DNA of 64,000 nt, taken from NCBI RefSeq assembly GCF_002854065.1, contig NZ_CP024147.1; one strand, given 5' to 3'. The notes below the pieces were generated by a model. The model saw only the letters and a list, made by a program, of their open reading frames with translations. It did no database searches and was not told the DNA's origin. Positions 23,589 through 42,460 of the stretch are shown piece by piece (position 1 is the first letter of the stretch; every line of letters begins with the position of its first letter). Both the position numbers and the translations under genes were made by a program. The DNA comes from Escherichia coli. Its GTDB lineage: Bacteria; Pseudomonadota; Gammaproteobacteria; Enterobacterales; Enterobacteriaceae.

Positions 23589-23637
23589 CACCCCTGAGAA
23601 CCGCCATGAATAAGGGTTTCATGATTTGTGATTTTAG

Positions 23638-23660
23638 TTTGGTACGCAATTTGGTACACA
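23638..23660. repeat. Direct repeats TTTGGTAC(G/A)C x2, putative integrase arm-type sites (attL side)
   Basis: tttggtacgc 23638-23647 and tttggtacac 23651-23660, same orientation as repeats near int. Confidence 0.5.
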
Positions 23661-24081
23661 ACACAATTTTCACTTCAGCGGGTAGTCATCAAACTCACCA
23701 TAACGAGCATCGTTGATGATGTATGTGATCACCACAAATATCACATCTGGACTAGTTCCGTCTTCATGCGCAGGTATCTGTTCACGCCTCCCTTTCTGCA
23801 AATCCTAAAGATGAGATTTTGGGGTTTTGGGATATCTTTTTATCCTCAGTTCTCTATCCATTCTACAAAGCAGTAATGAACCATCACTATGTGATAGTGA
23901 GGCATCCGCTACATTAAGCGCAGAGAAATGATGCAGTGGTGGTCGGACTGGATTGATGAAAAGGTGTGATCGGTTAGCGCAAGACGAATCACCACCCTCG
24001 CCAGTTTTGAGTTGTTTTGCGCTAATTTTTTACCCCACCTCTGCCCCATCAAAAGAAAACCCGCTCTAGCGGGTTCATGTC

Positions 24082-25152
24082 TCAGGCCTCTTTGCCCTTC
24101 TCTATCGCTGAGGGCTTGTCAGGAAGCAATGCGCTTATACGTCCCTTAAGGTACTTGTACATTCTGACGTCGATGAATGCTGCGTATAAATACGCTAGCA
24201 CTATCGAGACAGCAATCATTTTTACCGCCCCCATAAATGGATCTCCCTCAACAATACCGGTAATCATCACAGGGAAATGGAGAAGGTACAGAGGGAAGCT
24301 GATAAACCCTAAAAACTGGACTGGTGCAGAGTAAAGGAACCGTTTAACCAGGGACTCATCATTCATGTAATCGACAGTTAGCAGGGGAAGAAATGCCACC
24401 ATGTAGAAATAATCCATCCTGTTGGTATGCGAAGGTTGAGCATAGAGCCCGGCAAAGCATACAAACAGACACATAGCCAAAAAAACATTCTTTTGAGGTA
24501 GTTTAGTGAAACTCTCGTACCATTTTAATTTTATGATCGAGTACATACCCGATCCCATCAAAAGACATGATGATGCAAAAACAAAATTGTACATCCCGAA
24601 AAGCTCTGGACTACCGAGCCCTCTGGCAGAAACAACAGCCAGATAAATAAATGCCAAAATAGAAATACATAACCTTGAAAGCGGCCCCATTCTCAAGAAC
24701 AGAACTGGAATCAACATGGACGCCCAAAATTCTATGCTGACACTCCACGAAGGTTCATTTATCAAATTGAATGATAATGGGGTAGACCCATGTATAAATG
24801 CTAAATTCGCTACCCATGTCCTGATACTAAATACGTAATCACCTGGCACATAACCACCATTAAGGCTATTTACGTAGTAAATGATTACCATTATCACTGA
24901 TGATATAAAGGTAAGAGGCCACAGTCTTGCCAGTCTATTCAAAAAATATGACGGGATAGACGCCCCATTTCTTACTGAGTGGGTAAGCACAAATCCCGAT
25001 ATGATGAAAAAATATGCAACAGCCAAGTGAGGGCCGTTGAATGGCCCATCATTTTTCCAACCAGTAACAGCATTGATGGCGTGATTTAGGAGCACTGCGC
25101 ATGCAAAAAGGCCGCGCAAACCATCAACAGCATAGAAGCGTTTAATTTCCAT
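24082..25152 (-). CDS. Acyltransferase family 3 membrane protein (OafA/Oac-like); candidate lysogenic-conversion O-acetyltransferase
   Basis: 356-aa multi-pass membrane ORF, N-terminal motif YAVDGLRGLFACAVLLNH typical of acyltransferase-3; AT-rich; sits at prophage end after the tail fibre gene; hairpin terminator 24057-24076. Confidence 0.7.
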   Translation of the reverse strand: MEIKRFYAVDGLRGLFACAVLLNHAINAVTGWKNDGPFNGPHLAVAYFFIISGFVLTHSVRNGASIPSYFLNRLARLWPLTFISSVIMVIIYYVNSLNGGYVPGDYVFSIRTWVANLAFIHGSTPLSFNLINEPSWSVSIEFWASMLIPVLFLRMGPLSRLCISILAFIYLAVVSARGLGSPELFGMYNFVFASSCLLMGSGMYSIIKLKWYESFTKLPQKNVFLAMCLFVCFAGLYAQPSHTNRMDYFYMVAFLPLLTVDYMNDESLVKRFLYSAPVQFLGFISFPLYLLHFPVMITGIVEGDPFMGAVKMIAVSIVLAYLYAAFIDVRMYKYLKGRISALLPDKPSAIEKGKEA

Positions 25153-25271
25153 AACAATTTATTTAAAAAAAGAAAAATTATACTAGAAATATATCATCAA
25201 CATCTATGCCATTGATGATTAAGTGATGGTTGTCACGGTTTTGTGTTTCTGGCTGGAATGCTGGCAGTGCT

Positions 25272-25460
25272 TTACTCGCTTGACTCAGGATCGGTGAATA
25301 CTCCATCTTCATAAATCCATCCAATTCTGCATGGTATTCCGTCTATTTTAACAACCTGATAATCATCAAAAATATGCCCCTCACCATCCCATATAACAAT
25401 ATTTACAACTATTCCATCTGTAATTAATGCATATCTCATGCAAACTCCTCCACAAGACAA
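25272..25460 (-). CDS. Small hypothetical phage protein downstream of tail fibre gene (possible tail-fibre assembly remnant)
   Basis: 62-aa ORF only; position where a tail-fibre chaperone is expected. Confidence 0.3.
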
Positions 25461-26362
25461 ATACCATCAGCACCTTCACCACCATAAAAACGCGTGGAGA
25501 AGACCTGCGTGTCATATGCGCCAGCGCCGCCACCGCCAGGGACTAATGCTTTCGCAATTCTCGGTGAATATACAGTACACTGCCCCGCTCTTCGGCTGCC
25601 ACCCCAAAAGCTTGAACCGCCGTACCCATTAAGGAACCTAGTATTATTTTGGCCATCTCCGCCATCTCCGCCGGCTAGATTTACATCACCACCAGACCCG
25701 GCAACTCCAACGCCGCCTGATGCATATACAGTGGAAGCAGTGGACGGGTTTCCGCCTGTGGCAACCATCCCACTAAATGTTGAGTTACCGCCTTTTGTTG
25801 CCTCAGTTCCGCCAGCACCGATAACCACGGCAAAGTTTGTGATGTCAGCAATATTGAACCATTTGATACCTGTAGCGCCTGCAGCCCCCCCAGCACCGGA
25901 AAAGTTATCGGTTGGGGAACCACTATTAAAAGCGCCACCTCCGCCACCACCCCCTCCCGTTAGAGTTACTTTGATGCGCTTCGTCAGCGGGTTTAGCGTT
26001 ACTGTTTTTGATGAGGTGATCCACTGCTCGGCAATCTTCCTACCTACGTATCCGTTGGTATCTCCCAAATCAAGGTTTGCGAGAGCCGTTTTCACCGTGC
26101 CATCCGATTTGATATCGCCAAACGGATTCTTGCGGCTTAACAGCAGAGCACGAAGCGCGGTAAGCAACTGGTCGTGCCGCGCCTTCTCCAGACTGGCACC
26201 AGATGCCTCAACAACGCTACAAAGTTCTTCCTGCAACATGTCAAAGTAGTCATCATCCAGATCGGTGGCAGGCGTGCCAGTCTGGGGGTTACCACGGGTA
26301 AAACCGTTCTTACCCGCGCCGAACTTATCCTTCTGCGCGGTTTTCGTGTCTATACGATGCAT
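25436..26362 (-). CDS. Phage tail fibre protein, glycine-rich
   Basis: 308-aa ORF with poly-Gly/GGxGG repeats and conserved tail-fibre N-terminus; follows baseplate genes. Confidence 0.65.
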
Positions 26363-26365
26363 GGA

Positions 26366-26950
26366 TTACTCCGGATATTTAAAAATTACGTAGGTATGCG
26401 ACGGGCAGAGTTTGTTAAGCACACACTCGACAACGGTGTCGCCCCAGATACGCAGTGCGGAATCACAGGGATCGCCACATGTCATCCAGGTGGTGTTGGT
26501 GGTGGTTGGCATGTTGACATGCCAGTAATACCGCCATTCCGGCGCATTCACCGCGTCAGTACAGGCCGATGAGCAGGTGAACGTGCTTTTGTCGTATCGC
26601 GTGATGGTGGCATCTGGTCTGCCCAGGGCAGCAAGCTGTGCAAGATAAAAATCCTCGTTGATGCCGCCCGCCAGGTTAACCTTCGCATCCAGCCGTTGCT
26701 GACGCTGGCGAAGGGTCTGCGTTCCCGCCGGAATACATTCATCCGGCAGACCGCACAGACGCTCCCAGCGGTTTATCAGTTCAGTGGTGGTGCGCGGATC
26801 CAGCTCCCGCATCAGGGCATCCGCACGCTGATGAACACGGGTTAATGACGGTGCCGCACCGGCAATCGCCGGATCGCTGGCTGACCACGCCGGACCGGGC
26901 GGCAACAGTGCCGATAACAGGCGGATGTAATCATCGTTTGTCACGTCCAT
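26366..26950 (-). CDS. Phage tail protein (Mu gp48 / YmfQ-like, DUF2313)
   Basis: 194-aa ORF in tail module between baseplate J and tail fibre. Confidence 0.5.
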
Positions 26951-27999
26951 GAAATCGTCCCCAGTACCGCCAGTTCGTTTTTCGCAATGGAGATATTGTC
27001 CACCGGTGCAAGCAACTGATGGCTGTATTCCCCGTTCGCACCGGAAATCGCCTCACTGATACGCGACACCTTCAGTTCTCCCTGCGGATAACCATCACGC
27101 AGCAGGAACGAACGCAACTCCGCGGTGATGGCAGCCCGTATTTCCGGTGTATCCGGCGTCACGCGGATATGAAAATCCACCGTATGTGCCACCGGCCTGA
27201 ACACATACAAGTCAGAACCTGCCACCGGGGCCAGTGGCCCGATATGTTGTATTGCCGCCGTTTCCGTTGATTCTTCCGGAATGGGATTAATCAGGTCACT
27301 GCTGGCAATCATCACACCGACAGTTCCCGTTCCCATCCAGTGACGGTATGTCCATGCGCGGGTAATGCCGGGCACTTCTTTAGCCCAGACGACATAGTCC
27401 CCGTCAGCCCCGCCCTGCGGCGTCCAGTAATACCGCTCAATGACGCGGGCGCGCCACGTTTCCAGATCTTCAGTATCGAATCCGCCAGTCAGGGTATCTG
27501 CAACACCGGAAGACGGCAGACCATTCACCGGCGTGACTAGGATTAATGCCGTACCGTCGTCAGCGTTACCGACCGCGCCTGCATTTGAGCAAGTGATCGG
27601 CACACGCAGGACACCACCGGAGCTGGTTGCATCGGCAGTTGCCGTGTACTGAACCAGGTCATCGCGCTGAATCACGCTCCCGGCAGTCACCTTCAGGCCA
27701 TCGCTGACACCTTCCCAGCGCATATACCCGCTGGCAGCCGTGGCCCCCTTGCGCGGACACCGTTTCATCGCAGCATGTCGCGCCAGCCAGGACTCATCGC
27801 ACAGGTCAGGCAGCATATTCATTGCCAGATAATCGATGTACCCGTAGACCGTATGCAGCGCCGCCGCATACACCTTTGCCCGCACGTCTTCATCCATGCG
27901 CCGGAGCGTGTTGCTGACGTCCAGCCTGGCGAATAAATCGTTACGGAGCATACTGATATTTTCTGCCAGCGTCGGGCGCTGAAATTCACTGTCCGCCAT
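26941..27999 (-). CDS. Baseplate J-like protein (Mu gp47-like)
   Basis: 352-aa ORF, position and size in Mu-like baseplate module. Confidence 0.55.
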
Positions 28000-28414
28000 G
28001 CGTTATCGCACTCCACAGATCATCAAAAGAAATCATTACCGGTCCGTCACGACGCCAGAGAGTGATACTGTTACCCAGTTCATTAATCCCGGTACGGCGG
28101 ATATCCAGATCAATACGGGACACCACGCCGTCATCAATCATCCATTGCAGGCATTCGCGGATATATCCCCTTACCGTCTGCACCAGCTGATTGGTCAGTT
28201 TGCTGCGCTGAAGCAGCCACAGTCGGGAGCCGTAACGGTCATTCTGTACCGCAGGCCAGGTATCCCCCCACCATCCCATCGGGACGTCGGCGTTGTCATC
28301 AGGCTCCGCCCGCCGCCAGGTAAACAGGGAAATCACCACGGCGCGGGTCAGCGGATCCAGCGGTGCGCTGGCGCAGGTGCGTTTACCGTTCACCGTCAGC
28401 CACAGTTCCATCAT
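27986..28414 (-). CDS. Phage baseplate protein (Mu gp46-like)
   Basis: 142-aa ORF overlapping neighbours, as in Mu-like baseplate operons. Confidence 0.5.
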   Translation of the reverse strand: MMELWLTVNGKRTCASAPLDPLTRAVVISLFTWRRAEPDDNADVPMGWWGDTWPAVQNDRYGSRLWLLQRSKLTNQLVQTVRGYIRECLQWMIDDGVVSRIDLDIRRTGINELGNSITLWRRDGPVMISFDDLWSAITHGGQ

Positions 28415-28959
28415 GCCTCCATCGCTTTATCAGGTTTGTCGGTGTTACTGCCCTGACCGTTCTCTCTGTGACGATGCCCGTTATAGGCAAGCCGCATCGC
28501 TGACATGGTGGTGCCGCCGGAGTCGCACAGGTCTTTCACCTGTCCGGTCACTTCCAGGTCCATTTCAAAACGTGCTTTAGGTGAATTGCGAAACGTGATC
28601 GTTTTACCTGCACCGTCCACCACGATCCCCTCCCGGGTCAGCGTCACGGACTGCCCCTGATCGTCATAGACAGCCACCTCACCCGTCTGCAGCCCTTTCA
28701 GGCGGTAGCGCCGGTCCGACACCGTAACAACCACCGCATGAGAACGGTCGCCATCCGGAAACAACACCACCGCTTCCGCACCGCTGTTTGCCCTTGCGGT
28801 AAAACCGTAGGGTTCAAGATGTTCAACCCCGGCTTTGGGTTCACCGGCAATCAGGGACACATCCACGGTCTGACATTTCGTGGCGGCACTGATGCTTTTC
28901 ACCACGGCCCGCCCAATCAGGCCGAGGAGTTGTCGCTGCATGGCTTCAATCGTCCTCAT
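28411..28959 (-). CDS. Baseplate assembly protein V / spike (Mu gp45-like)
   Basis: 182-aa ORF; position in module. Confidence 0.5.
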   Translation of the reverse strand: MRTIEAMQRQLLGLIGRAVVKSISAATKCQTVDVSLIAGEPKAGVEHLEPYGFTARANSGAEAVVLFPDGDRSHAVVVTVSDRRYRLKGLQTGEVAVYDDQGQSVTLTREGIVVDGAGKTITFRNSPKARFEMDLEVTGQVKDLCDSGGTTMSAMRLAYNGHRHRENGQGSNTDKPDKAMEA

Positions 28960-30038
28960 CAGAACGGGTCCTCCTGTACTCTGGCTTTTTTCTTTTTCCG
29001 CGCGCCGGGGGCTTCGGGTTCAGGCAGATAAGCATCAGGTGGGCCGACACGGATTTCCGTCAGGGTGCCGTTCTGGTCCTGAGTAAACGTGACTTCCGAA
29101 ACAAGCAGTTCGGTATTGTCGAAACCACAGACCGGATCAAAGACAATCACCCGCTGGTTGGGCTGCCACAGCGTACCGTTACACTGTCGCCAGCCCTGCA
29201 CCACATAGGTGGTTTCATCCGTCCGCGCCGCCCGTTGTCTGGCTTCAAAGTCCGCACGGGCAATACAGCCTGCCCCCGTAGCCTGCCCTGTCTGCCTGAT
29301 ATACATCGGACGGTAACGGGCAATAAATGCGTCCTCTGTGCGGGCCCGCAGCGCGGTGGTGGTGGCCTCACCGAAATCATCGTCGTTTCCGGCACGCTGC
29401 CCCGCCACCTGGTAAACAGAAAACCGCTCCCGGATACTCTTCTCCGTATCGCAGGAAAGGATGTTTTCCCCGAGTACCAGCGCAGTATGTGCCCGAGTTG
29501 AGCCAATACCGCCAATCACCAGCCTGCCGTGCGGGTCGTCGTAAGCCAGTGCCTGCTGCTGACCGAGTATTTTGTTGATTACCTCAATCACCGTTTCACC
29601 GTGATCAGGCTGAACATCAGGAATAACACCCGACGGCGCACCGCTGTTCACCACCTCAATGCCGAAAGGCGCAGCAAGCGCCTGCGCAATCTGCACCAGC
29701 GAGCGTCCGTTAAACTGTGTCGGTTCGGCTGCACAGTCAATCAGGTCAGCCGTCAGACTACGTCCGACAATACCGGTGCTGACCGAACGGGAATCGTAAC
29801 GAACGGGCGTCGCCTCCACCCAGCCGGTGATCACCAGCTCATCACCAATCAGCACTTCCACTTTTGAACCGTTTTTAATGCGCGGCTGAAGCGTGGTGAT
29901 ACCCTCATCTCCCGGCCACTGGCGGGTGATCTCCACACTGAAATCCCGCGCCAGCCGTTCAATACCGGCACCGATGCGCACCGATGTCCAGCCATTCCAC
30001 TCCCGGCCATTTACCCGTAGCGTGACATTGTCGTTCAT
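28959..30038 (-). CDS. Phage tail protein (Mu gp44 / P2 gpD-like)
   Basis: 359-aa ORF; position between DNA-circulation and baseplate genes. Confidence 0.5.
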   Translation of the reverse strand: MNDNVTLRVNGREWNGWTSVRIGAGIERLARDFSVEITRQWPGDEGITTLQPRIKNGSKVEVLIGDELVITGWVEATPVRYDSRSVSTGIVGRSLTADLIDCAAEPTQFNGRSLVQIAQALAAPFGIEVVNSGAPSGVIPDVQPDHGETVIEVINKILGQQQALAYDDPHGRLVIGGIGSTRAHTALVLGENILSCDTEKSIRERFSVYQVAGQRAGNDDDFGEATTTALRARTEDAFIARYRPMYIRQTGQATGAGCIARADFEARQRAARTDETTYVVQGWRQCNGTLWQPNQRVIVFDPVCGFDNTELLVSEVTFTQDQNGTLTEIRVGPPDAYLPEPEAPGARKKKKARVQEDPF

Positions 30039-31375
30039 TGCACTGGCACCTTCAGAGGGATCACCGGCACAAAGCCGGGATGCGTAATGGCATTACGCCG
30101 GATAATGTCCGCGTCACGCGCCGCGTTATCAAACCAGGTCGCCGCCAGCACCAGCGCGGGTAAAACCTCATCCGGTGTGCGCTGAATGATCCGTGCAGAC
30201 TGTTCAAGGCGCGTGTTGATATCCGCATTCAGATCTGCTTTCACCCGGCGCAGCGCCAGAAACAGCGCATCACTGGTTGTACGGGACAACTCCTTATCAA
30301 TTGCCGTATTCAGTGTGTCGCGAATGTCAGTCAGTTCTTCCCACGTCGGCAGGTCAACCGTGTTTTTCACCGCCGGTGCATTGTTCAGTGCCGGATGCGT
30401 GACGGAAGGCCAGCCAGTGCTCTGCGCGGGTGTTGTTGCCTGCCCCACTGCGGCATTCTGCATCACCGCGGAAGTTGTTGGCGCAGGCAATCGGGTGACG
30501 GCATACGCCGCTTCGCTGATTGCGGTCGTACGAAGGGTGCTGGCAACCACGTTACGCTGCTGCGTCGCCGTGGCGGTGGTTTTACTGTCCGTTTTCCAGA
30601 CGCCGCGCGGTTGCAGATCGCTGCCGAGGCTGACACCGGAAAGCGTTTTGATCATGGTGACCAGGTCGCTGGCGTTACCATAAAGGCGTTTCCCGGTACG
30701 CCACATTTTCTGCACCTGCTCAACGAAATTTTTGCCTGACGATGGCGGCGGCAGAAGTACCGAGATATCCCCCTGCAACAGCCTGGCGGCATCCGATACG
30801 GCAGAATCCACCACTTTCATCGCATCAGAAACATACCCCAGCATTATGCTGGCATTACCGATAACGTCGTTCTGCACGAAATCCGCAACACCATCGATAC
30901 TGAAACCGCTGAAGCTGTCACTGATGCAGTCATCCAGTGCAGAACAGGATGACATCAGCGTCTGCGCCGTCGCCGCACCTGATGTGGGGTAAGAGAGTTC
31001 TCCTGCTTCGACAAACTTCAGGTCAAAGCGGACAATACGCCCTTCACTTTTCGATGTGCTGACCCGAACTTCCCCGTCAACACAGACTTTCAGCTCACCA
31101 TATGTCGGGTGGACAAGCGTGCCTGGACCGGGTTTATTCAGCGCGTCAATCAGGCGATCGCGCTGGTCAAAGCAGTCATCTCCCACCACATAAGCTGTGA
31201 TGGACGGGCGGAAAGTGATTTTCCCCAGGTCTTCGGTATAGGGTTTGTCGCGGTTTGGGTATTCATGCGTTTCAACCCGACGTCCTACCGGGGCCCCTTC
31301 ATCTTCTACCTTGAACGGAACGCCGCGAAACGACGCTTCAACCAGTCTGTCTTTCCACGCCATTGTCTGCACCAA
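30035..31375 (-). CDS. Phage DNA circulation protein (Mu gp43 / N-like)
   Basis: 446-aa ORF; the expected upstream tape-measure/sheath/head genes are missing, replaced by IS1. Confidence 0.5.
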   Translation of the reverse strand: MVQTMAWKDRLVEASFRGVPFKVEDEGAPVGRRVETHEYPNRDKPYTEDLGKITFRPSITAYVVGDDCFDQRDRLIDALNKPGPGTLVHPTYGELKVCVDGEVRVSTSKSEGRIVRFDLKFVEAGELSYPTSGAATAQTLMSSCSALDDCISDSFSGFSIDGVADFVQNDVIGNASIMLGYVSDAMKVVDSAVSDAARLLQGDISVLLPPPSSGKNFVEQVQKMWRTGKRLYGNASDLVTMIKTLSGVSLGSDLQPRGVWKTDSKTTATATQQRNVVASTLRTTAISEAAYAVTRLPAPTTSAVMQNAAVGQATTPAQSTGWPSVTHPALNNAPAVKNTVDLPTWEELTDIRDTLNTAIDKELSRTTSDALFLALRRVKADLNADINTRLEQSARIIQRTPDEVLPALVLAATWFDNAARDADIIRRNAITHPGFVPVIPLKVPVQ

Positions 31376-31534
31376 TATGATTTGTTATAAGCTACTCTGT
31401 TTCAGACGCTTCTTTCGAAGCGCCAGAGAACATTTACCTTTAAGGAGAGGTATAAATGGAAATGTTTTTGCCGTTAATACTGGGTTTGTTGCTAGCCGTT
31501 TTCATAGGACGGTGGGCTTGGTAATGACTCCAAC

Positions 31535-32038
31535 TTATTGATAGTGTTTTATGTTCAGATAATGCCCGATGACTTTGTCATGCAGCTCCACCGATTTTGA
31601 GAACGACAGCGACTTCCGTCCCAGCCGTGCCAGGTGCTGCCTCAGATTCAGGTTATGCCGCTCAATTCGCTGCGTATATCGCTTGCTGATTACGTGCAGC
31701 TTTCCCTTCAGGCGGGATTCATACAGCGGCCAGCCATCCGTCATCCATATCACCACGTCAAAGGGTGACAGCAGGCTCATAAGACGCCCCAGCGTCGCCA
31801 TAGTGCGTTCACCGAATACGTGCGCAACAACCGTCTTCCGGAGCCTGTCATACGCATAAAACAGCCAGCGCTGGCGCGATTTAGCCCCGACATAGCCCCA
31901 CTGTTCGTCCATTTCCGCGCAGACGATGACGTCACTGCCCGGCTGTATGCGCGAGGTTACCGACTGCGGCCTGAGTTTTTTAAGTGACGTAAAATCGTGT
32001 TGAGGCCAACGCCCATAATGCGGGCAGTTGCCCGGCAT
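31535..32038 (-). CDS. insB: IS1 transposase InsB
   Basis: 167-aa ORF. Confidence 0.9.
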
Positions 32039-32232
32039 CCAACGCCATTCATGGCCATATCAATGATTTTCTGGTGCGTACCGGGTTGAGAAGCGGTGTA
32101 AGTGAACTGCAGTTGCCATGTTTTACGGCAGTGAGAGCAGAGATAGCGCTGATGTCCGGCGGTGCTTTTGCCGTTACGCACCACCCCGTCAGTAGCTGAA
32201 CAGGAGGGACAGCTGATAGAAACAGAAGCCAC
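31957..32232 (-). CDS. insA: IS1 InsA
   Basis: 91-aa ORF. Confidence 0.9.
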
Positions 32233-32327
32233 TGGAGCACCTCAAAAACACCATCATACACTAAATCAGTAAGTTGGCAGCATCACCCGTCAGATGAAAG
32301 AATTAATCGGTAACGAAGGAGATATTC

Positions 32328-32498
32328 ATGTCACTTGCAACCACAGTGAAGGAGAGCAAGTTACAGAGACGCATGTACACGCAGAAAGCTCTCTGGTATC
32401 GCCATAATGGCGACCGCGAAGGAATGCGGGTATGCCTTAATTTGTCCCGAGTCGAAGTATTAAATCAGCGTTATTTCCTTGGGCCGTGTCCATTCTGA
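32328..32498 (+). CDS. Small hypothetical phage protein (56 aa), not in ORF track
   Basis: ATG at 32328 preceded by GAAGGAG RBS; translated by hand MSLATTVKESKLQRRMYTQKALWYRHNGDREGMRVCLNLSRVEVLNQRYFLGPCPF; directly upstream of recombination genes. Confidence 0.4.
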   Translation: MSLATTVKESKLQRRMYTQKALWYRHNGDREGMRVCLNLSRVEVLNQRYFLGPCPF

Positions 32499-32506
32499 GG
32501 TGAATT

Positions 32507-33214
32507 ATGGATTTGAATAAATTCGATGAGCCATTCAGCCCTGAAGATATCGAATGGCGAATACAGCAAAGCGGTAAAACACGCGATGGCAAGGTGTGGG
32601 CTATGGTGCTGGCTTATGTAACGAACCGGGCAATCATGAAACGCCTGAACGATGTTTGCGGCAAAGCAGGATGGCGCAATGAATACCGCGATATTCCCAA
32701 CAACGGCGGAGTTGAATGCGGCATATCAATCAGGATTGATTCCGAATGGGTAACCAAATGGGATGCTGCTGAAAACACGCAGGTAGAAGCCGTCAAAGGT
32801 GGTCGTTCCGGCGCAATGAAGCGCGCTGCCGTTCAATGGGGAATCGGTCGGTATCTGTATAACCTTGAGGAAGGTTTCGCACAAACATCTCTCGATAAAA
32901 AGCAGGGGTGGCACAGGGCAAAACTGAAGGATGGAACAGGATTTTACTGGCTCCCTCCATCGCTGCCGGGATGGGCAATACCAGCATCAGATAACAAACC
33001 ATCACCAGAAAATACCAACCAGAAATCTCCATCGGTTGACTGCGAACAAATCCTGAAAGACTTCAGCGATTATGCATCAACAGAAACTGACAAGAAAAAA
33101 CTCATCGAGCGTTATCAGCGTGACTGGCAATTAATGGCTGGCAACGAGGAGGCGCAGGCTAAATGCGTTCAGGTAATGAGCATCAGAGTTAACGAACTAA
33201 AACAGGCGGCATAA
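32507..33214 (+). CDS. Rad52/Rad22-type single-strand annealing protein (phage recombinase)
   Basis: 235-aa ORF immediately upstream of a phage SSB gene; sequence resembles Rad52-family phage proteins. Confidence 0.55.
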   Translation: MDLNKFDEPFSPEDIEWRIQQSGKTRDGKVWAMVLAYVTNRAIMKRLNDVCGKAGWRNEYRDIPNNGGVECGISIRIDSEWVTKWDAAENTQVEAVKGGRSGAMKRAAVQWGIGRYLYNLEEGFAQTSLDKKQGWHRAKLKDGTGFYWLPPSLPGWAIPASDNKPSPENTNQKSPSVDCEQILKDFSDYASTETDKKKLIERYQRDWQLMAGNEEAQAKCVQVMSIRVNELKQAA

Positions 33215-33721
33215 ATGGCAAGCAGAGGCGTAAATAAGGTGATTATCCTTGGTCGGGTAGGACAAGACCCGGAAGTTCGATACTCACCATCAGGAACAGC
33301 GTTCGCTAACCTGACAATAGCCACGTCAGAACAATGGCGAGATAAAAATACTGGCGAGCAAAAGGAATTGACTGAATGGCATCGTGTTGCTGTATCCGGG
33401 AAACTGGCTGAGGTCGTGGGGCAGTATGTGAAAAAAGGTGATCAGATTTATTTCGAGGGAATGCTGAGAACCAGAAAGTGGAAAGACCAGTCAGGGCAAG
33501 ACCGTTACACAACCGAGGTTCATGTCGGAATTAATGGCGTGATGCAAATGCTTGGCGGCATTGGCGACAGCAAACAACAAGCAGCCAGCAGGCAATCACA
33601 GAAGCCACAGCAGCAATCATCACCAGCACAACACAACGAACCTCCGATGGATTTTGACGACGATATACCCTTTGCACCAGTAACTCTCCCCTTCCCTCGT
33701 CACGCTATTCACGCAATTTAA
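33215..33721 (+). CDS. ssb: Single-stranded DNA-binding protein (phage SSB)
   Basis: 168-aa ORF with OB-fold N-terminus ([18 protein letters not shown]...) and acidic C-terminal tail DFDDDIPF. Confidence 0.85.
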
Positions 33722-33734
33722 TCAGGAGAAAATC

Positions 33735-34031
33735 ATGCCAGCGCCTCTGTATGGTGCGGATGACGCGCGCCGCTGTTCCGGCAATTCCGTATCGGAGGTG
33801 CTGGATAAATTCAGGAAAAACTACAACCGGATAATGTCGCTACCGCAGGAAACGAAAGAGGAAAAGGAATTTCGCCACTGTATATGGCTTGCAGAGAAAG
33901 AAGAACGCGAGCGAATTTACCAGACATCAATCCGACCATTCCGCAAAGCCACATATACCCACTTCCCTGAATATATCGACCCGCGCCTGCGTAATTACCG
34001 CTCACGCTATGGCGCTATCAGTAATGACTGA
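33735..34031 (+). CDS. Hypothetical phage protein
   Basis: 98-aa ORF in co-oriented phage early-gene string. Confidence 0.4.
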
Positions 34032-34040
34032 GGAATTTAC

Positions 34041-34205
34041 CATGAGAGGACTTGCATACAATCCCGGAATTCTTCCGGCAGAAATGATTATTCGCCAACG
34101 CGTAAAGCCAATGCCATCGAGAGAGGAATTGCTTAAGAGAAAGAGTTTCGGTTCTGTTAATGACAACAAATATCTGAATGCGATGTGGCTGAGTGGGAAG
34201 AAATG
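34041..34205 (+). CDS. Hypothetical small phage protein
   Basis: 54-aa in-frame segment from ATG 34041 within ORF 33889-34206; start uncertain. Confidence 0.3.
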
Positions 34206-34685
34206 AAACAAATGACACTAATTGAGATGGATGGATTTCTGAAAGGTAAATGCATCCCATGTGATTTAAAGGTTAACGAAACAAACGCTGAATATCTTGT
34301 GCGTAAGTTCGGTGAACTTGAATCAAAACTAGAAACGGCGTTGCGGGAGTGTAGTTCTGCTGGAATCACGATTGATAACCTTGAGGCCAAGTGCGCGAAG
34401 ATGGCTGCTGAAAATACCTCGCTTAAGCAATCTGAGAAGGAATTTAATGACTTTTGTCGTGAGGAGTTTAGCGAATGGGAAGATGATGTTACTGAAACCC
34501 CAGCCACCGATGCTTTCCTGGCTGAAGTACGGGCGCAGGGGGTAGAGATGTACGCAGATAACCTCGACAACGGAGCAGACGACGCAGAACGAGGTGGTTT
34601 TGATTATGCCGCTAAGTTTCTACGCGGTGAGGCGTCTAGTGTACGCTTGTTCGCCGACCAGCTTCGCAAAGGAGGCAACCAGTGA
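34185..34685 (+). CDS. Ead/Ea22-like phage protein (start may be ATG 34203)
   Basis: 166-aa ORF with coiled-coil/acidic features typical of lambdoid Ea22-like proteins. Confidence 0.5.
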
Positions 34686-35161
34686 GCAAGATTAACTATC
34701 AGGCACTGCGTGAGGCGGCGGAACGTGCAATTCCAGCAATGGAACGCCTGTTAATGTTGCCAGTTGATGATGATTTGTTAAGTGAACAGGAACTTAAAGA
34801 TTACGGTGTGGATATTGATGCGCTCAACGCCTTCAAATTTCTGACCGGACCAGAAACCGTGCTGGCGCTGCTGGATGAGCTGGAAAGAAAACAGCAATAC
34901 ATCAAATCCCGAGACCAGGAGAACGAGGATATTGCGCTAACGGTAGGGAAGCTGCGCGTTGAGCTGGAAGCCGCAGAGAAGCGCATTGCTGAGCTGGAGT
35001 TGCGGGAGGTTGTGCTTCCGCAATGCTATAGCATGTTGCATCGCGTCGATTTTGACGAGCCTTACCACACTGAAATGGTTTACAGGCAGCATCAGGTTCT
35101 TGAGGCACTGCACAACGCTGGAATAAACGTCACCGAAGCAGGTAAAGGAGAGGCATCATGA
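34682..35161 (+). CDS. Ead/Ea22-like phage protein
   Basis: 159-aa ORF, coiled-coil region (LRVELEAAEKRIAELELRE); overlaps neighbours by 4 nt. Confidence 0.5.
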   Translation: MSKINYQALREAAERAIPAMERLLMLPVDDDLLSEQELKDYGVDIDALNAFKFLTGPETVLALLDELERKQQYIKSRDQENEDIALTVGKLRVELEAAEKRIAELELREVVLPQCYSMLHRVDFDEPYHTEMVYRQHQVLEALHNAGINVTEAGKGEAS

Positions 35162-35670
35162 GCACTATCACAAGAGAATGGCTGCAGCAGGCTATCAACG
35201 ATTATGAAAGCGTTCGTGATGAGCTTCCTTTCGGGCTTGATGATTACCAGGGGAATATCCTGGCTGCCCTGCGTATCGCACTGGCATCGCTGGAAGCAGA
35301 GCCGGTGGCGTGGAAGGTAACATTCACGCAAATTGACCGTGAATATAACACGTTCACTGGTATGTATTCTGACAAAGCAGAAGTCGAACGGTGGGTGCGG
35401 CTGCATAAAGCATGTAATTTTCGGGCAGATATAACACCGCTTTATACCGCCAAGCCAGTGCCGGTAACTCCGGATGGTTGGATAAGCTGTAGTGAGCGAA
35501 TGCCAGAGGACGGTCAGCACGTAATTATTTTATGTGATGGCGCATTCGTTCTTTATGCGCAATATCGAGACGGAGAGTTTTTCGATATTGTCCGCAATGG
35601 TGATGAATTTTTCGAAACACAGAGTCGCAATGTAACCGACTGGATGCAACTACCAGAACCTCCCCTTTGA
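35158..35670 (+). CDS. DUF551-type phage protein
   Basis: 170-aa ORF; C-terminal region (PDGWISCSERMPEDGQHVIILCDG) resembles DUF551. Confidence 0.5.
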   Translation: MSTITREWLQQAINDYESVRDELPFGLDDYQGNILAALRIALASLEAEPVAWKVTFTQIDREYNTFTGMYSDKAEVERWVRLHKACNFRADITPLYTAKPVPVTPDGWISCSERMPEDGQHVIILCDGAFVLYAQYRDGEFFDIVRNGDEFFETQSRNVTDWMQLPEPPL

Positions 35671-35766
35671 TAGCTAAGCTTATACATATCTTTTACATCA
35701 GCAATCTATTGTTAATCTCCAATCAATGTTACGTTGTCATCTCTCTCATGCTTTGGAGGTAGTGAT

Positions 35767-35958
35767 ATGTCTTGTCCAAAATGCGGTTCTGGAAATATTG
35801 CAAAAGAAAAAACAATGCGTGGATGGTCTGATGATTATGTGTGCTGCGATTGCGGATACAACGACTCTAAAGACGCATTTGGAGAGCGTGGTAAAAACGA
35901 GTTTGTCAAAATTAATAAAGAACGCGAAGGCGGTGATGCTGCCAACTTACTGATTTAG
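35767..35958 (+). pseudogene. Phage zinc-ribbon protein with C-terminus altered by IS1 insertion (native end ...EREGNEKS reconstructed across the IS)
   Basis: CxxC...CxxC motif (MSCPKCGSG...YVCCDCGY); GGAGGT RBS 6 nt upstream of ATG 35767; reading frame runs into the IS1 terminal repeat. Confidence 0.55.
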
Positions 35959-35986
35959 TGTATGATGGTGTTTTTGAGGTGCTCCA

Positions 35987-36262
35987 GTGGCTTCTGTTTC
36001 TATCAGCTGTCCCTCCTGTTCAGCTACTGACGGGGTGGTGCGTAACGGCAAAAGCACTGCCGGACATCAGCGCTATCTCTGCTCTCACTGCCGTAAAACA
36101 TGGCAACTGCAGTTCACTTACACCGCTTCTCAACCCGGTACGCACCAGAAAATCATTGATATGGCCATGAATGGCGTTGGATGCCGGGCAACCGCCCGCA
36201 TTATGGGCGTTGGCCTCAACACGATTTTCCGCCATTTAAAAAACTCAGGCCGCAGTCGGTAA
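35987..36262 (+). CDS. insA: IS1 InsA
   Basis: 91-aa ORF. Confidence 0.9.
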
Positions 36263-36684
36263 CCTCGCGCATACAGCCGGGCAGTGACGTCATCGTCTGC
36301 GCGGAAATGGACGAACAGTGGGGATACGTCGGGGCTAAATCGCGCCAGCGCTGGCTGTTTTACGCGTATGACAGGCTCCGGAAGACGGTTGTTGCGCACG
36401 TATTCGGTGAACGCACTATGGCGACGCTGGGGCGTCTTATGAGCCTGCTGTCACCCTTTGACGTGGTGATATGGATGACGGATGGCTGGCCGCTGTATGA
36501 ATCCCGCCTGAAGGGAAAGCTGCACGTAATCAGCAAGCGATATACGCAGCGAATTGAGCGGCATAACCTGAATCTGAGGCAGCACTTGGCACGGCTGGGA
36601 CGGAAGTCGCTGTCGTTCTCAAAATCGGTGGAGCTGCATGACAAAGTCATCGGGCATTATCTGAACATAAAACACTATCAATAA
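36181..36684 (+). CDS. insB: IS1 transposase InsB
   Basis: 167-aa ORF. Confidence 0.9.
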
Positions 36685-36823
36685 GTTGGAGTCATTACCC
36701 GCGAAGGCAACGAAAAAAGCTAATTTATTTATTCATATATGAAAACAATGTAATAAATATTCGAATTGAAGAATTGAAAGAACACCAAGCCGCCTGATGG
36801 CGGTTTTTTATTGGAGACAAGAA

Positions 36824-37168
36824 ATGTCAGATTTGGCTATGAAGGTTTTGAAATGGCAATCGACTGGCGATGTCGGCATCAGTAGCGCAACTCTTGCCTC
36901 AATCGCATGTGGCCTGAAAAAGAATATCTATGGTCATCACTTCGGCGCTCCCCATGACGCAGCAGACTTTCGGCGATGCGTTGCACTTGTTGAGCAGATT
37001 CCAGAAATCAGAGATTCATTCGACAAGGTTGCAAAGCGCGTTCCGGCATTCAAAGGAATCCTCAACGAATGGGATTCACTCGTTGCTCTGTTGAAGTCTG
37101 AAATGAAGACGTACGGGAACAAAGCACCAGAGACTTACAGAAGAATCAGCGAGCTACGCAAGGACTAA
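36824..37168 (+). CDS. Hypothetical phage protein (moron-like unit bracketed by hairpin/T-run elements)
   Basis: Start at ATG 36824 (MSDLAMKVLKWQ...) with GGAGA RBS; GC hairpin plus T-run at 36789-36809 and a similar element at 37209-37229. Confidence 0.45.
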   Translation: MSDLAMKVLKWQSTGDVGISSATLASIACGLKKNIYGHHFGAPHDAADFRRCVALVEQIPEIRDSFDKVAKRVPAFKGILNEWDSLVALLKSEMKTYGNKAPETYRRISELRKD

Positions 37169-37245
37169 CGCCTCACACTCGATGAGGCCTGTACATATCT
37201 GATAGATCCGCTATATGGCGGTTTATTTTTGCCTGGAGAATTAAG

Positions 37246-37437
37246 ATGACCGATACCAGCCTGATTCCTGAGAAAGAAGTGATGAACAAGCTCGGTGTTT
37301 CATCACGTCAGACAATCTGGAACTATACCAAACGGCACGGATTTCCGAAGCCAGTCAGAACCCACCCCAAATCATACCTTCGTGAAGCTGTTGAAGGGTG
37401 GATTCTTAACGGTGGCGTTAATCAGAAATGCTCCTGA
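37246..37437 (+). CDS. alpA: AlpA-family phage transcriptional regulator / excisionase-like
   Basis: 63-aa ORF with HTH (VSSRQTIWNYTKRHGFPKP), convergent with and adjacent to integrase. Confidence 0.7.
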   Translation: MTDTSLIPEKEVMNKLGVSSRQTIWNYTKRHGFPKPVRTHPKSYLREAVEGWILNGGVNQKCS

Positions 37438-38596
37438 TGTGCCAGAACAATTTATCAGCGTGAAGCTCATACGCTTTGCGCTGAGCCTCTATCCAGTCGT
37501 GTTTATTGTATACGGACATTATCCCGCCAAGTTCATGACCGAGCATTCGCTCAGTAACATGAGGCTCGACATTCATCTCGGACAGACGTGTAACAAGCGT
37601 TCTTCTGAAATCGTGTGTTCGCCAGTAACCTAGATCCATCCCTCCCCTTATTCTATTTACGAATCGGTTGGCTGCAGCGATGCTGATCGGTTTGTTTATG
37701 TCTTCTCCAGGGAAAAGAACATCATTGTACGTTGTCATGGCCTTTTCGAGGAAAGGCTTAATTTGTTCGAAGATTGGACGGCGGATAACATTACCCATCT
37801 TGCTATGCTCTTTCGGTACGGTCCATACGTTTTCCAGCAGGTCAAATTCTGTCTTTTTTGCCAGCCTAAGCTCTGAGAGCCTCGCCCCCCACAGCATAAG
37901 CATCTGATGAAGTAGCTTATTTGACGTAGACGCACGGCTTCTTTCAATAGCAAGCCAAATCTTAGCCAGTTCGTGATACGACAGTACCCGATCCCCTACC
38001 TCAGCGCGGGAGCCGAAGTCCCTTGGTTGGATGCTCATAATTGCGCAACTATCTATCAACTGACGCCGCATGCACCAACTTATTGCTGATCTTAGTTGAC
38101 TTAGCACCTGCCTTGCTCGGCGTGGATTATCTCTTTCTTCTTCGGTAAGCAGGTCAACCCATTGCTTAACCGTGATAGAAGATGCCGGACGATTAGGAAA
38201 GGCGTCATGCATGCGCTTCATAACCGTTGATCGGTAAAGTGCCTGGGTCTTTTCTCTGAGAGTTGTAGAGACGTAGTTGTCGAACCAGTAGTCGAGACAC
38301 TGGGCGACCGTCATGGAGTTCTCCACCTTCTCTTCAAAATAAGTGCGTGGATCCGTTCCTGAGAAATAGAGCTTTCGCAAGTCAGCAGTGATCTGTCTGG
38401 CATCCTTCAAAGACAGGGATGGGTATCGACCAAGCCCAAGTCGATTAGGCTTGCCATGCCAGCGATAGCGGTACTGGAACTGGATGACCCCCTTCGGTGA
38501 AATTCGTACGCTGAGGCCATCGGCATCAGCCACTTCTTGTGGGCCCGAATATGGTTTACCATAAATACTACGCAGTTTTGTGTCGCTTATAGCCAT
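37418..38596 (-). CDS. int: Tyrosine-type phage integrase (P4-type, N-terminal arm-binding domain)
   Basis: 392-aa ORF with integrase catalytic region (HDFRRT...LGH...Y); adjacent to attR. Confidence 0.85.
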   Translation of the reverse strand: MAISDTKLRSIYGKPYSGPQEVADADGLSVRISPKGVIQFQYRYRWHGKPNRLGLGRYPSLSLKDARQITADLRKLYFSGTDPRTYFEEKVENSMTVAQCLDYWFDNYVSTTLREKTQALYRSTVMKRMHDAFPNRPASSITVKQWVDLLTEEERDNPRRARQVLSQLRSAISWCMRRQLIDSCAIMSIQPRDFGSRAEVGDRVLSYHELAKIWLAIERSRASTSNKLLHQMLMLWGARLSELRLAKKTEFDLLENVWTVPKEHSKMGNVIRRPIFEQIKPFLEKAMTTYNDVLFPGEDINKPISIAAANRFVNRIRGGMDLGYWRTHDFRRTLVTRLSEMNVEPHVTERMLGHELGGIMSVYNKHDWIEAQRKAYELHADKLFWHIRSISD

Positions 38597-38605
38597 AAAT
38601 AATAT

Positions 38606-38648
38606 TTGGTACGCTCAGAAATAATGGTTTGGTACACATCTGGTACAC
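38606..38648. repeat. Direct repeats TTTGGTAC(G/A)C x3, putative integrase arm-type sites (attR side)
   Basis: tttggtacgc 38606-38615, tttggtacac 38628-38637, ctggtacac 38640-38648; matching pair on attL side at 23638-23660. Confidence 0.5.
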
Positions 38649-38777
38649 AATATCACATGGACAACAGCGCACAGTAAACAACTATATTTGACGTTCGTAG
38701 ACATACTCAGGTGAAAAAATGGTTGTTTTTCGAGTTATAACAGACAGTTAATTAACTACAGTGGACAATGCTAGACA

Positions 38778-40202
38778 ATGACAGACGCAGATAAACAACC
38801 TACCTTCCTCTTTCACGATTACGAAACCTTTGGCACGCACCCCGCGTTAGATCGCCCTGCACAGTTCGCAGCCATTCGCACCGATAGCGAATTCAATGTC
38901 ATCGGAGAACCCGAAGTCTTTTACTGCAAGCCCGCTGATGACTATTTACCCCAGCCAGGAGCAGTATTAATTACCGGTATTACCCCGCAGGAAGCACGGG
39001 CGAAAGGAGAAAACGAAGCCGCGTTTGCCGCCCGTATTCACTTGCTTTTTACCGTACCGAAGACCTGTATTCTGGGCTACAACAATGTGCGTTTCGACGA
39101 CGAAGTCACACGCAACATTTTTTATCGTAATTTCTACGATCCTTACGCCTGGAGCTGGCAAAACCGCAATTCGCGCTGGGATCTGCTTGACGTGATGCGC
39201 GCCTGCTATGCCCTGCGCCCGGACGGCATCAACTGGCCGGAAAACGACGACGGTCTGCCGAGCTTCCGCCTGGAACATCTCACCAAGGCCAACGGTATTG
39301 AACACAGTAACGCCCATGATGCGATGGCCGACGTTTACGCGACCATCGCCATGGCGAAGCTGGTGAAGGCCCAACAGCCAAAGCTGTTTGATTATCTGTA
39401 TGCCTACCGGGGCAAAAACAAGCTGATGACGCTGATTGACGTCCCGCAGATGAAGCCACTGGTGCATGTCTCGGGAATGTTTGGCGCCTGGCGCGGAAAC
39501 ACCAGCTGGATTGCGCCGCTGGCCTGGCATCCGGATAACCGTAATGCGGTGATCATGGTCGACCTGGCGGGCGACATCGCCCCGCTGCTCGAGCTGGATG
39601 CCGATACGCTGCGCGAGCGCCTGTATACGCCGAAGGCCGAGCTCGGCGACAGTTCGCCGGTGCCGATTAAGCTGGTGCATCTGAATAAGTGCCCGGTGCT
39701 GGCGCAGGCCAATACCCTGCGCCCAGAAGACGCTGACCGTTTAGGCATTAACCGACAGCACTGCCTGGATAACCTGAAACTGCTGCGCGATAACCCGCAG
39801 GTGCGCGAGAAGGTGGTGGCGATTTTTGCTGAAGCCGAGCCGTTTGTCGCATCGGACAACGTCGACGCCCAGCTTTATAACGGTTTCTTTAGCGACGCCG
39901 ACCGCGCGGCGATGAAAATCGTGCTGGAGACCGAGCCGCGCAATCTGCCGGCGCTGGACATTACCTTCGCCGACCCGCGTATTGAGAAGCTGCTGTTTAA
40001 CTTCCGCGCGCGCAACTTCCCCGGCACGCTGGATGAAAACGAGCAACAGCGCTGGCTGGAACACCGTCGGCAGATCTTCACCCCGGAATTTTTACAGGCC
40101 TACGCCCAGCAACTGGAGATGTTGTACGGTCAGTATGAGGGGAATAACGAGAAGCTATCGCTGCTGAAGGCGCTGTATCAGTACGTGCAGGAGATTGTTT
40201 AA
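38778..40202 (+). CDS. sbcB: Exodeoxyribonuclease I, with phage-supplied promoter and first ~11 codons (MTDADKQPTFLF...)
   Basis: 474-aa ORF with DnaQ-like exonuclease N-terminus (FLFHDYETFG); hairpin terminator 40211-40241 downstream. Confidence 0.9.
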   Translation: MTDADKQPTFLFHDYETFGTHPALDRPAQFAAIRTDSEFNVIGEPEVFYCKPADDYLPQPGAVLITGITPQEARAKGENEAAFAARIHLLFTVPKTCILGYNNVRFDDEVTRNIFYRNFYDPYAWSWQNRNSRWDLLDVMRACYALRPDGINWPENDDGLPSFRLEHLTKANGIEHSNAHDAMADVYATIAMAKLVKAQQPKLFDYLYAYRGKNKLMTLIDVPQMKPLVHVSGMFGAWRGNTSWIAPLAWHPDNRNAVIMVDLAGDIAPLLELDADTLRERLYTPKAELGDSSPVPIKLVHLNKCPVLAQANTLRPEDADRLGINRQHCLDNLKLLRDNPQVREKVVAIFAEAEPFVASDNVDAQLYNGFFSDADRAAMKIVLETEPRNLPALDITFADPRIEKLLFNFRARNFPGTLDENEQQRWLEHRRQIFTPEFLQAYAQQLEMLYGQYEGNNEKLSLLKALYQYVQEIV

Positions 40203-41494: not shown

Positions 41495-41560
41495 AACGAA
41501 TCCCAGGTGATGCTGCCAACTTACTGATTTAGTGTATGATGGTGTTTTTGAGGTGCTCCA

Positions 41561-41836
41561 GTGGCTTCTGTTTCTATCAGCTGTCCCTCCTGTTCAGCTA
41601 CTGACGGGGTGGTGCGTAACGGCAAAAGCACCGCCGGACATCAGCGCTATCTCTGCTCTCACTGCCGTAAAACATGGCAACTGCAGTTCACTTACACCGC
41701 TTCTCAACCCGGTACGCACCAGAAAATCATTGATATGGCCATGAATGGCGTTGGATGCCGGGCAACTGCCCGCATTATGGGCGTTGGCCTCAACACGATT
41801 TTACGTCACTTAAAAAACTCAGGCCGCAGTCGGTAA
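41561..41836 (+). CDS. insA: IS1 InsA
   Basis: 91-aa ORF. Confidence 0.9.
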
Positions 41837-42258
41837 CCTCGCGCATACAGCCGGGCAGTGACGTCATCGTCTGCGCGGAAATGGACGAACAGTGGGGCTA
41901 TGTCGGGGCTAAATCGCGCCAGCGCTGGCTGTTTTACGCGTATGACAGTCTCCGGAAGACGGTTGTTGCGCACGTATTCGGTGAACGCACTATGGCGACG
42001 CTGGGGCGTCTTATGAGCCTGCTGTCACCCTTTGACGTGGTGATATGGATGACGGATGGCTGGCCGCTGTATGAATCCCGCCTGAAGGGAAAGCTGCACG
42101 TAATCAGCAAGCGATATACGCAGCGAATTGAGCGGCATAACCTGAATCTGAGGCAGCACCTGGCACGGCTGGGACGGAAGTCGCTGTCGTTCTCAAAATC
42201 GGTGGAGCTGCATGACAAAGTCATCGGGCATTATCTGAACATAAAACACTATCAATAA
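41755..42258 (+). CDS. insB: IS1 transposase InsB
   Basis: 167-aa ORF (FTSLKK variant). Confidence 0.9.
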
Positions 42259-42460
42259 GTTGGAGTCATTACCCGAATCCCAGTAAAGCCCCGCAAATCA
42301 TGCCACTTATTATCATGTGCAACATAAGAATCAATTAACTCAATATTATCAGTCTTAAAATTATTCCTGACCCCGCCGGACGGCTCCAATAACCAAAAGC
42401 TCTATATTATTCCCGACGGTTATTAATATTGATTTTTTAATCACCCCACAAACTTAAGAC

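Follow-up and report, generated by a model that had tools for sequence, protein, structure and literature searches.

What is a tightly packed cluster of a small open reading frame (ORF), a Rad52-like single-strand annealing protein (SSAP) gene and a gene for a protein that binds single-stranded DNA (SSB) doing in a chromosome of Escherichia coli, and is it a new recombination system or the relic of a known one? The cluster lies in a window of 64,000 nucleotides, the whole stretch of DNA analysed here (contig NZ_CP024147.1). We propose, with high confidence in the explanation as a whole, including the mechanism given in the last section, that the region is a Rec module of the HK75 type, derived from the pL operon of a lambdoid phage and now left as a stranded remnant.

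Gene order and composition of the module

The ORF list and the raw sequence agree on three plus-strand ORFs, given in the first three lines below; they are followed on the same strand by an Abc2 gene and a DUF2737 gene.

32328..32498, + strand: 56-aa accessory gene of the HK97 gp42 / Sf6 gp29 / HK620 HkaM family (phrog_1723, BLASTP, pN/pS)
32507..33214, + strand: predicted Rad52/Rad22-family SSAP, 235 aa (Pfam PF04098, AlphaFold2 model, Foldseek)
33215..33721, + strand: predicted bacterial-type SSB ("SSB-1"), 168 aa (Pfam PF00436, TIGR00621, PDB alignment)
33735..34031, + strand: predicted Abc2, the P22-type anti-RecBCD (RecC-binding) protein, 98 aa (Pfam PF11043, PDB 8B1T)
34042..34206, + strand: DUF2737 small protein, HK97 gp38-like (Pfam PF10930, E 3.6e-28)

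The SSAP stop codon TAA (33212-33214) abuts the SSB ATG (33215) with no gap, GAGGTG precedes the ATG of the SSAP gene, and the Abc2 ORF, itself preceded by AGGAG, follows the SSB gene after 13 nt without a nuclease ORF between them. The DUF2737 gene is the usual downstream neighbour, and its position matches that in HK75, Sf6 and HK620. All three ORFs of the original cluster match PHROGs families, the region is present in 495 phage records and in 3169 of 5426 complete E. coli genomes (megablast), and the HK75-like arrangement, which has no nuclease gene, occurs in 36 of 80 related viral loci; the three are not chance ORFs. The coordinates, the ribosome-binding sites, the Pfam and PHROGs matches and the recurring gene order thus bear out the preliminary description of the region as a compact small ORF, Rad52-like SSAP and SSB, and the TAA-ATG junction together with the Pfam match of the SSB (E 1.6e-36) agrees with its statement that the annealase gene is immediately followed by an SSB gene. 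Its account of the 56-aa ORF, as an unannotated frame with a strong ribosome-binding site, stands in the second part (AAGGAG lies 7 nt 5' of the ATG) and fails in the first, since the ORF is annotated in several phage records.

The 56-aa ORF matches phrog_1723 at E 9.4e-36 and has 100% identity to Sf6 gp29, 82% identity to the HK75/HK022 version and homology to HK620 HkaM (BLASTP E 9e-10). Among 35 distinct DNA versions its pN/pS is 0.27, against values above 1 in the other two frames; the frame of "gp42.1", an ORF that overlaps it in related phages, has a pN/pS of 6.7 in the overlap and is under no constraint there. Judged from these comparisons, the ORF is a real gene under purifying selection, and not a novel one. 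In the alignment the family ends in an invariant C-terminal FL..PF, and its genes lie 8 nt upstream of annealase genes of either the Rad52 or the Sak4 type (loci L083-L089). Pfam gave no family for the 56-aa ORF or for gp42.1 of Sf6 and HK75, P22 Arf (PF17585) included, and we found no experimental basis in the literature for the PHROG label "recombinase" of phrog_1723. HkaM was part of the HK620 module that has been tested, in which sak4 and ssb alone gave full oligonucleotide-recombineering activity (PMC5928155). The 56-aa protein is a conserved accessory, whose HK620 homologue HkaM is dispensable for oligonucleotide recombineering.

The Abc2 ORF, left out of the preliminary description, matches Pfam PF11043 (Anti-RecBCD_p2) with 201.5 bits against a cut-off of 25 (E 1.9e-60) and aligns end to end (residues 1-98) with P22 Abc2 in PDB entry 8B1T (E 8.2e-55). 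These matches make it the predicted fourth member of the module and the one that would supply a counter-defence element; the earlier remark that such modules also appear in counter-defence contexts is justified mainly by this adjoining gene, which lies outside the stretch then described. In the RecBCD-Abc2 structure, P22 Abc2 sits on RecC, at the Chi-recognition domains, and RecBCD stays active, and loading of phage recombinases by P22 Abc2 was proposed by the authors (PMC9836394).

The annealase and its C-terminal domain

The 235-aa protein matches Rad52_Rad22 (PF04098) at E 2.3e-26, its score of 93 bits exceeding the cut-off of 20.3; its residues 4-136 cover profile positions 7-153 of 153, and the domain is present in all 120 homologues listed for the protein. 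The profile search suggested with the preliminary description as the means to place this protein therefore came out in favour of Rad52_Rad22, and Pfam returned no match to Erf (PF04404) or RecT/Red-beta (PF03837) at E<=0.01. Database labels are less uniform. RefSeq names the protein "Rad52/Rad22 family DNA repair protein", whereas phrog_1097 is called "Erf-like ssDNA annealing protein", the Sf6 and g341c records label the SSAP erf-like, and older phage annotations read "similar to P22 Erf". An annealase of the Erf or RecT/Red-beta family, as these last labels would have it, is nevertheless very improbable given the Pfam result and the structural matches described next, and family assignment already refutes it; the Rad52, Erf and RecT families form one superfamily, so that the labels are loose and not contradictory.

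Searches of the PDB with the SSAP sequence (phmmer, and a profile of 36 sequences) found no Rad52 structure, only chance-level matches (PRP40 WW domain, E 0.1-0.5), and because they missed RAD52 a comparison of folds was needed. An AlphaFold2 model of the SSAP was built on 36 homologues (pLDDT 84.7). In a Foldseek search of the PDB, the ten best matches of the model were all yeast Mgm101 or human RAD52, with probabilities of 0.99-1.0, E values of 1.6e-4 to 3e-3 and modest TM scores of 0.23-0.51, and no Red-beta or RecT structure was among the significant matches. The N-terminal fold of the model is of the Rad52 type, with a beta-sheet that packs against a long helix. Profile and model together indicate that the protein is a Rad52/Rad22-family annealase, and neither Erf nor RecT.

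Beyond the core (aa 4-136) the model shows a small beta-sheet bearing the FYWxPPxLPxWAxP motif, which is conserved, then a disordered linker at aa 162-175 and, at aa 179-234 (positions 33041-33208), a C-terminal domain of three helices. Homology (42% identity, E 2e-7) links this last domain to the final ~55 residues of AAA_24/Sak4-like annealases, where it lies outside the AAA_24 core, and the annealases that share it precede the same type of SSB in other phages. The sequence relationship fits an adaptor domain common to two unrelated annealase cores, of the kind anticipated as shuffled partner-interaction domains (PMC12315714). [quoted passage not shown] AlphaFold2 was also run on a fusion of the domain, a GS linker of 30 residues and the C-terminal 33 residues of the SSB, with a 42-row alignment of mixed paired and unpaired rows; the three-helix bundle came out at pLDDT 82-89 and the peptide at 45-58, and docking of the SSB tail on the domain is unsupported by these pLDDT values.

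The SSB and its capped tip

The 168-aa protein matches Pfam PF00436 with 125 bits and TIGR00621 with 166.9 bits against a cut-off of 53.95, the latter match ending at residue 153, and NCBIfam gave generic SSB models only. The structures of the E. coli and Klebsiella SSBs match it at E 1e-58 to 1e-59, with E. coli SSB aligning over residues 1-153, and the protein is 100% identical to the SSB of HK75. By homology it is a bacterial-type SSB, composed of an OB domain, a Q-rich linker, a host-like tip and an extension of 15 aa. The tip, ...DFDDDIPF (residues 142-153; positions 33635-33673), is identical to that of E. coli, yet it is not C-terminal: 15 more residues follow (33674-33718), so that the free terminal Phe of bacterial SSBs is absent.

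The extension is patterned, with the consensus [AS]P[VI][TG]L[PQ][FY]xx[HN]xx[HY]x[ILF], and recurs in 112 of the 120 closest 90%-identity SSB clusters and in 72 of the 80 related viral loci. Among 26 distinct DNA versions pN/pS is 0.42 in the extension (pS 0.44) against 0.04 in the tip, and 13 of the 26 differ only synonymously, the peptide of tip plus extension being identical in them. At seven of the eight loci without the extension, and also in Sf6, an HNH endonuclease gene is inserted exactly between the codons of IPF and those of the extension, and the HNH ORF at those loci reads into the extension codons. Extended SSBs follow Rad52-type annealases at some loci (L083-85, L089 and L090), Sak4-like annealases at others (L086-88) and, in a Vibrio phage, an ERF gene. 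The 28-residue unit of tip and extension also ends longer, non-homologous proteins of the ssDNA-binding type in virulent myoviruses, among them PVP-SE1 gp39 (409 aa) and the "SSB" of Phapecoctavirus Mt1B1_P17 (310 aa), and a profile of the unit, run against 1.84 billion proteins, returned 36 representatives, whose scaffolds measure 50-406 aa. Neither the peptide strings of the extension nor a "C-terminal extension" of phage SSBs was found in any paper in the searchable full text, which is mostly without subscription journals.

SSB partners reportedly use the free carboxylate of the terminal Phe, as described by Lu and Keck in 2008. The residue by which partner proteins recognise SSB is its last, Phe-177 (PMC6393309), and we hypothesise that the cap should therefore alter the choice of partner. 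We therefore put forward, as a tentative and rather doubtful idea, that the SSB belongs to a widespread class of phage ssDNA-binding proteins with a capped, host-mimicking tip, in which the cap reprogrammes partner recruitment. Such a cap might keep host nucleases and helicases away from phage ssDNA, or might serve a phage or host factor as a private handle. The shuffled C-terminal domain of the annealase and the PF-ended gp42/HkaM proteins would be candidates for readers or competitors of the cap, and an HNH gene at the boundary of tip and cap would act as a switch, with the SSB either capped or uncapped.

The masked tip also bears on another reading, in which the main role of the module is in the phage-host arms race and not in recombination: RecBCD, as an immunity hub, would be put out of action by Abc2, and the SSB with its cap, like the small protein that ends in PF, would alter the host SSB interactome or help to escape defences that sense SSB. 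The extension that masks the tip is conserved, the invariant ...PF end of gp42/HkaM resembles the SSB tip, Abc2 is a RecBCD-targeting protein, and recent preprints reportedly link anti-RecBCD proteins to OLD and Gabija sensing. We nevertheless consider this reading unlikely. PADLOC returned no family for any of the seven proteins submitted, so that no module protein matches a defence-system model, and the place of the genes between kil and int, beside the annealase gene, is the canonical position of a Rec module (PMC12315714); the two roles are, moreover, not mutually exclusive.

Prophage context and relation to known modules

Four IS1 copies lie in the window, three of them with 9-bp target duplications. 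The features that define the surroundings of the module are as follows.

31520..32287, - strand: IS1 at the left break of the early-left operon, without target-site duplication (IS1 terminal repeat)
32274..32303, + strand: candidate IS1/phage hybrid promoter, unproven (consensus scan, 9/12 matches)
32294..32407, + strand: remnant of the overlapping "gp42.1" ORF (Sf6 gp30 / HK75_33), its 5' end lost to IS1 (translations compared with Sf6 and HK75)
35932..36699, + strand: second IS1, a simple insertion with the 9-bp duplication CGCGAAGGC, interrupting a Lar-like zinc-finger ORF
37418..38596, - strand: prophage integrase adjoining sbcB, at the att-proximal end (Pfam Arm-DNA-bind_3 and Phage_integrase)

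The flanks of the left IS1 differ (GGTGGGCTT on one side and CGTCAGATG on the other), and because it has no target-site duplication this copy marks the junction of a deletion or rearrangement. Homology to HK75 and Sf6 sets in at 32288, which lies 39 nt inside the gp42.1 ORF. This ORF shows a short N-terminal resemblance to Arf-like ORFs, but given the lack of a Pfam PF17585 match we do not claim it as Arf. To the left of the junction lie Mu-like baseplate and tail genes of the SfV/SfI type on the minus strand; to the right of the module the early-left operon runs through the second IS1, which interrupts, more distally in this operon, a Lar-like ORF with its start at 35734, to the integrase beside sbcB, a region with 98-99% DNA identity to the integrase regions of mEp234 and of Stx phages. 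The opposite end of the prophage is bordered by dacD and an acyltransferase gene. These sequence data fit one prophage between dacD and sbcB of a Shigella-like chromosome, with an internal deletion. Lost with this IS1-associated deletion are pL, N, cIII and kil, and also the genes for immunity, replication, lysis and the head. A composite transposon formed by the two inverted IS1 copies was considered and rejected: the right copy has its own 9-bp duplication, as a simple insertion does, the left copy has none, and phage DNA continues past the right IS1 to the integrase.

All four module ORFs are intact, and the SSAP differs from Sf6 gp28 at only two of 235 residues. By its sequence context the module is a stranded remnant whose genes are intact and whose native promoter is gone, and because it is cut off from pL it is most likely silent or weakly expressed here. 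A different view is that the remnant has been reactivated, or domesticated, by a hybrid IS1/phage promoter, so that the host constitutively expresses a RecA-independent annealing pathway and a modifier of RecBCD, much as sbcA activates recET in the Rac prophage. A site of the form TTGGCA-18-TGnAAGAAT does span the junction just upstream of the first ribosome-binding site, with the -35 hexamer TTGGCA in the IS1 end and, after an 18-nt spacer, the TG-extended -10 hexamer AAGAAT in phage DNA, and the four ORFs have stayed intact amid surrounding decay. IS1 ends are said to be able to create hybrid promoters, as described by Prentki et al. in 1986. The site, however, matches the consensus at only 9 of 12 positions and is not above chance, promoter-like sites in the region numbering 3 against 5.5 expected, and a recent deletion explains the intact ORFs equally well, because the sequences share 96-100% identity with free phages. 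Reactivation is in our judgement quite unlikely, and we retain the silent or weakly expressed remnant.

The module itself is already known, as a catalogued lambdoid recombination gene set. A survey of 325 lambdoid phages published in Genome Research in 2025 classified Rec modules by function; HK75 is the prototype of its class with anti-RecBCD, SSB and SAP and no nuclease, found in 27 of the 325 phages (Table 1), and the survey states that SSB-1 proteins have "not been studied experimentally" (PMC12315714). HK75, the best megablast match, agrees in the four genes and in their order and spacing, with 95.8% DNA identity over 2.4 kb, an identical SSB protein and an SSAP that differs at a few residues. 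Its order is pL, nun, cIII, kil, gp42, SSAP, SSB, abc2 and DUF2737, then xis and int, and the layouts of Sf6 and HK620 share this plan. In HK75 the pL operon is complete and the module follows nun, cIII and kil, whereas that of the window is severed by IS1; composition and order are thus those of the HK75 type, and the operon context is only partly so, kil, cIII, N and pL being deleted. The downstream genes of the window (a 166-aa ORF, Ead/Ea22 and DUF551) follow other mosaic relatives, not HK75.

Sf6 carries, as genes 29-28-27-26-25, an ES18-type module with a nuclease. Its gp29 is the 56-aa ORF, gp28 the same SSAP and gp25 Abc2, but its HNH gene, gp26, is the one that lies between the SSB ...IPF and the extension codons, so that the Sf6 SSB ends at a free IPF and the Sf6 HNH protein carries the extension residues. 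The hkaM-sak4-ssb-abc2 module of HK620 has the architecture and position of the module described here and a homologous Abc2; its annealase has a RecA-like Sak4 core whereas ours is of the Rad52 type, and its SSB, of the type "SSB-2", lacks homology to the one here and has a free NDYPPF end. HK620 provides the experimental precedent, since Sak4 is stimulated by its adjacent cognate SSB through the C-terminal residues of the SSB (Hutinet et al. 2018, PMC5928155). In P22, arf-erf-abc1-abc2 occupies the same operon position, with the same Abc2 and with RecBCD in place of a phage exonuclease; the annealase is Erf, Abc1 stands where the window has the SSB, and no relationship of Arf to the 56-aa ORF is detectable. 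Lambda Red (gam-bet-exo) is a functional analogue in combining a RecBCD antagonist with a Rad52-superfamily annealase that has a three-helix C-terminal adaptor, but it has its own 5'-3' exonuclease and no SSB, its Gam blocks RecBCD and does not co-opt it, and there is no sequence similarity.

From these parallels we infer the following route for the HK75-type module. By analogy with P22, Abc2 would bind the RecC subunit of host RecBCD and co-opt the enzyme for end resection, and because Abc2 leaves RecBCD active, so that the host enzyme resects, the module would manage without an exonuclease of its own. The phage SSB would coat the resulting single strand, and the Rad52-type annealase, probably as rings, would pair the coated strand with complementary DNA independently of RecA. 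The three-helix C-terminal domain of the annealase would be a likely adaptor to the SSB or another partner, by analogy with that of Red-beta, which binds lambda Exo and the SSB tip (PMC6393309). In this prophage the IS1-associated deletion has fused the Mu-type tail genes directly to the middle of the early-left operon.

The combination of a Rad52-type annealase, a cognate SSB and Abc2 may serve as a compact, nuclease-free recombineering candidate of modest practical value. The side observation on the SSB cap could matter more than the re-identified module, as the cap sits on unrelated ssDNA-binding scaffolds and is interrupted by HNH genes at the same point. The capped tip, the C-terminal domain shared by the annealases and the PF-ended small protein are leads on the specificity between SSB and annealase. 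If it is functional, the cap would be a concrete explanation for the specificity of cognate pairs of SSB and annealase, and also a novel means by which phages rewire the hub of host SSB interactions.

The decayed prophage and its IS1 copies

Window positions 23400-38700 are a single decayed prophage lying between dacD and sbcB. The acyltransferase gene comes first, followed by Mu-like tail and baseplate genes of the SfV/SfI type. Next come the IS1 deletion joint and what is left of the early-left region; the last part is an integrase with relatives in mEp234 and in several Stx phages.

22160-23332: dacD, prophage flank
24082-25152: acyltransferase gene, first of the prophage parts
38778-40202: sbcB, prophage flank
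8635-9402; 31520-32287; 35932-36699; 41506-42273: the four IS1 copies
35734-35958: Lar-like zinc-ribbon ORF (phrog_2945), interrupted by IS1

The four IS1 copies in 64 kb, a load typical of Shigella-like chromosomes, differ pairwise by 1-9 mismatches. Three of them are flanked by 9-bp duplications and are simple insertions; the exception, at 31520-32287, marks a large deletion within the prophage. In the Lar-like ORF, the last nine codons (GGDAANLLI) and the stop codon are supplied by the IS1 inverted repeat together with the target base that was duplicated.

The annealase beyond its Rad52 core

Two elements follow the Rad52 core of the 235-aa annealase (SSAP).

32891-32983 (SSAP residues 129-159): small three-stranded sheet between the Rad52 core and a disordered linker
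33041-33208 (SSAP residues 179-234): C-terminal three-helix domain

The sheet carries the invariant motif W..FYWxPPxLPxWAxP; its match to the PRP40 WW domain is at chance level only (E 0.1-0.5). The three-helix domain is shared (42% identity, E 2e-7) with AAA_24/Sak4-like annealases of the related viral loci L086-L088, which sit before an SSB of the same type as that in the window. The Rad52-type SSAP, these AAA_24/Sak4-like annealases and HK620 Sak4 all end in AA, which resembles a ClpX-type C-terminal degradation signal.

The SSB tip, its extension and the HNH insertion site

The acidic tip of the 168-aa SSB (...DFDDDIPF) is not terminal, being followed by a conserved extension.

33674-33718 (SSB residues 154-168): 15-aa C-terminal extension

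The arrangement recurs in loci L083-L094 and proteins P0276-P0311, and a variant seen outside the window is AP[IV]GLQY...; pN/pS of the extension is 0.42. The tip and extension together also form the C-terminus of other, unrelated ssDNA-binding proteins, 160-409 aa long, of Vibrio phages and virulent myoviruses, and no description of the extension was found in the searchable literature.

Sf6 (L002) 4399-4890; also viral loci L059, L060 and L077-L081: HNH endonuclease gene inside the SSB reading frame

In all these loci the HNH gene is inserted exactly between the IPF codon of the SSB and the extension codons. The insert brings along a stop codon and an RBS of its own, and the HNH ORF runs via E[EA] into the extension, which becomes the HNH C-terminus. 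The HNH genes at this identical site are of at least two variants, MITCKKCGENKP... and MK[IT]CSRC[HN]QQKE....

The gp42/HkaM small protein

Annotations of relatives give two overlapping ORFs, gp42.1 and gp42, across window positions 32288-32407, where gp42.1 is cut short by IS1; within the overlap, purifying selection acts on the gp42 frame only. The gp42/HkaM proteins (window ORF 32328-32498; family alignment A4) terminate in an invariant FL(G)x2-5PF, with the endings PCPF, DELPF, SELPF and EPPF. This terminal PF is similar to the SSB tips DDDIPF and, in HK620, NDYPPF, a likeness suggesting that it may possibly mimic the SSB tip.
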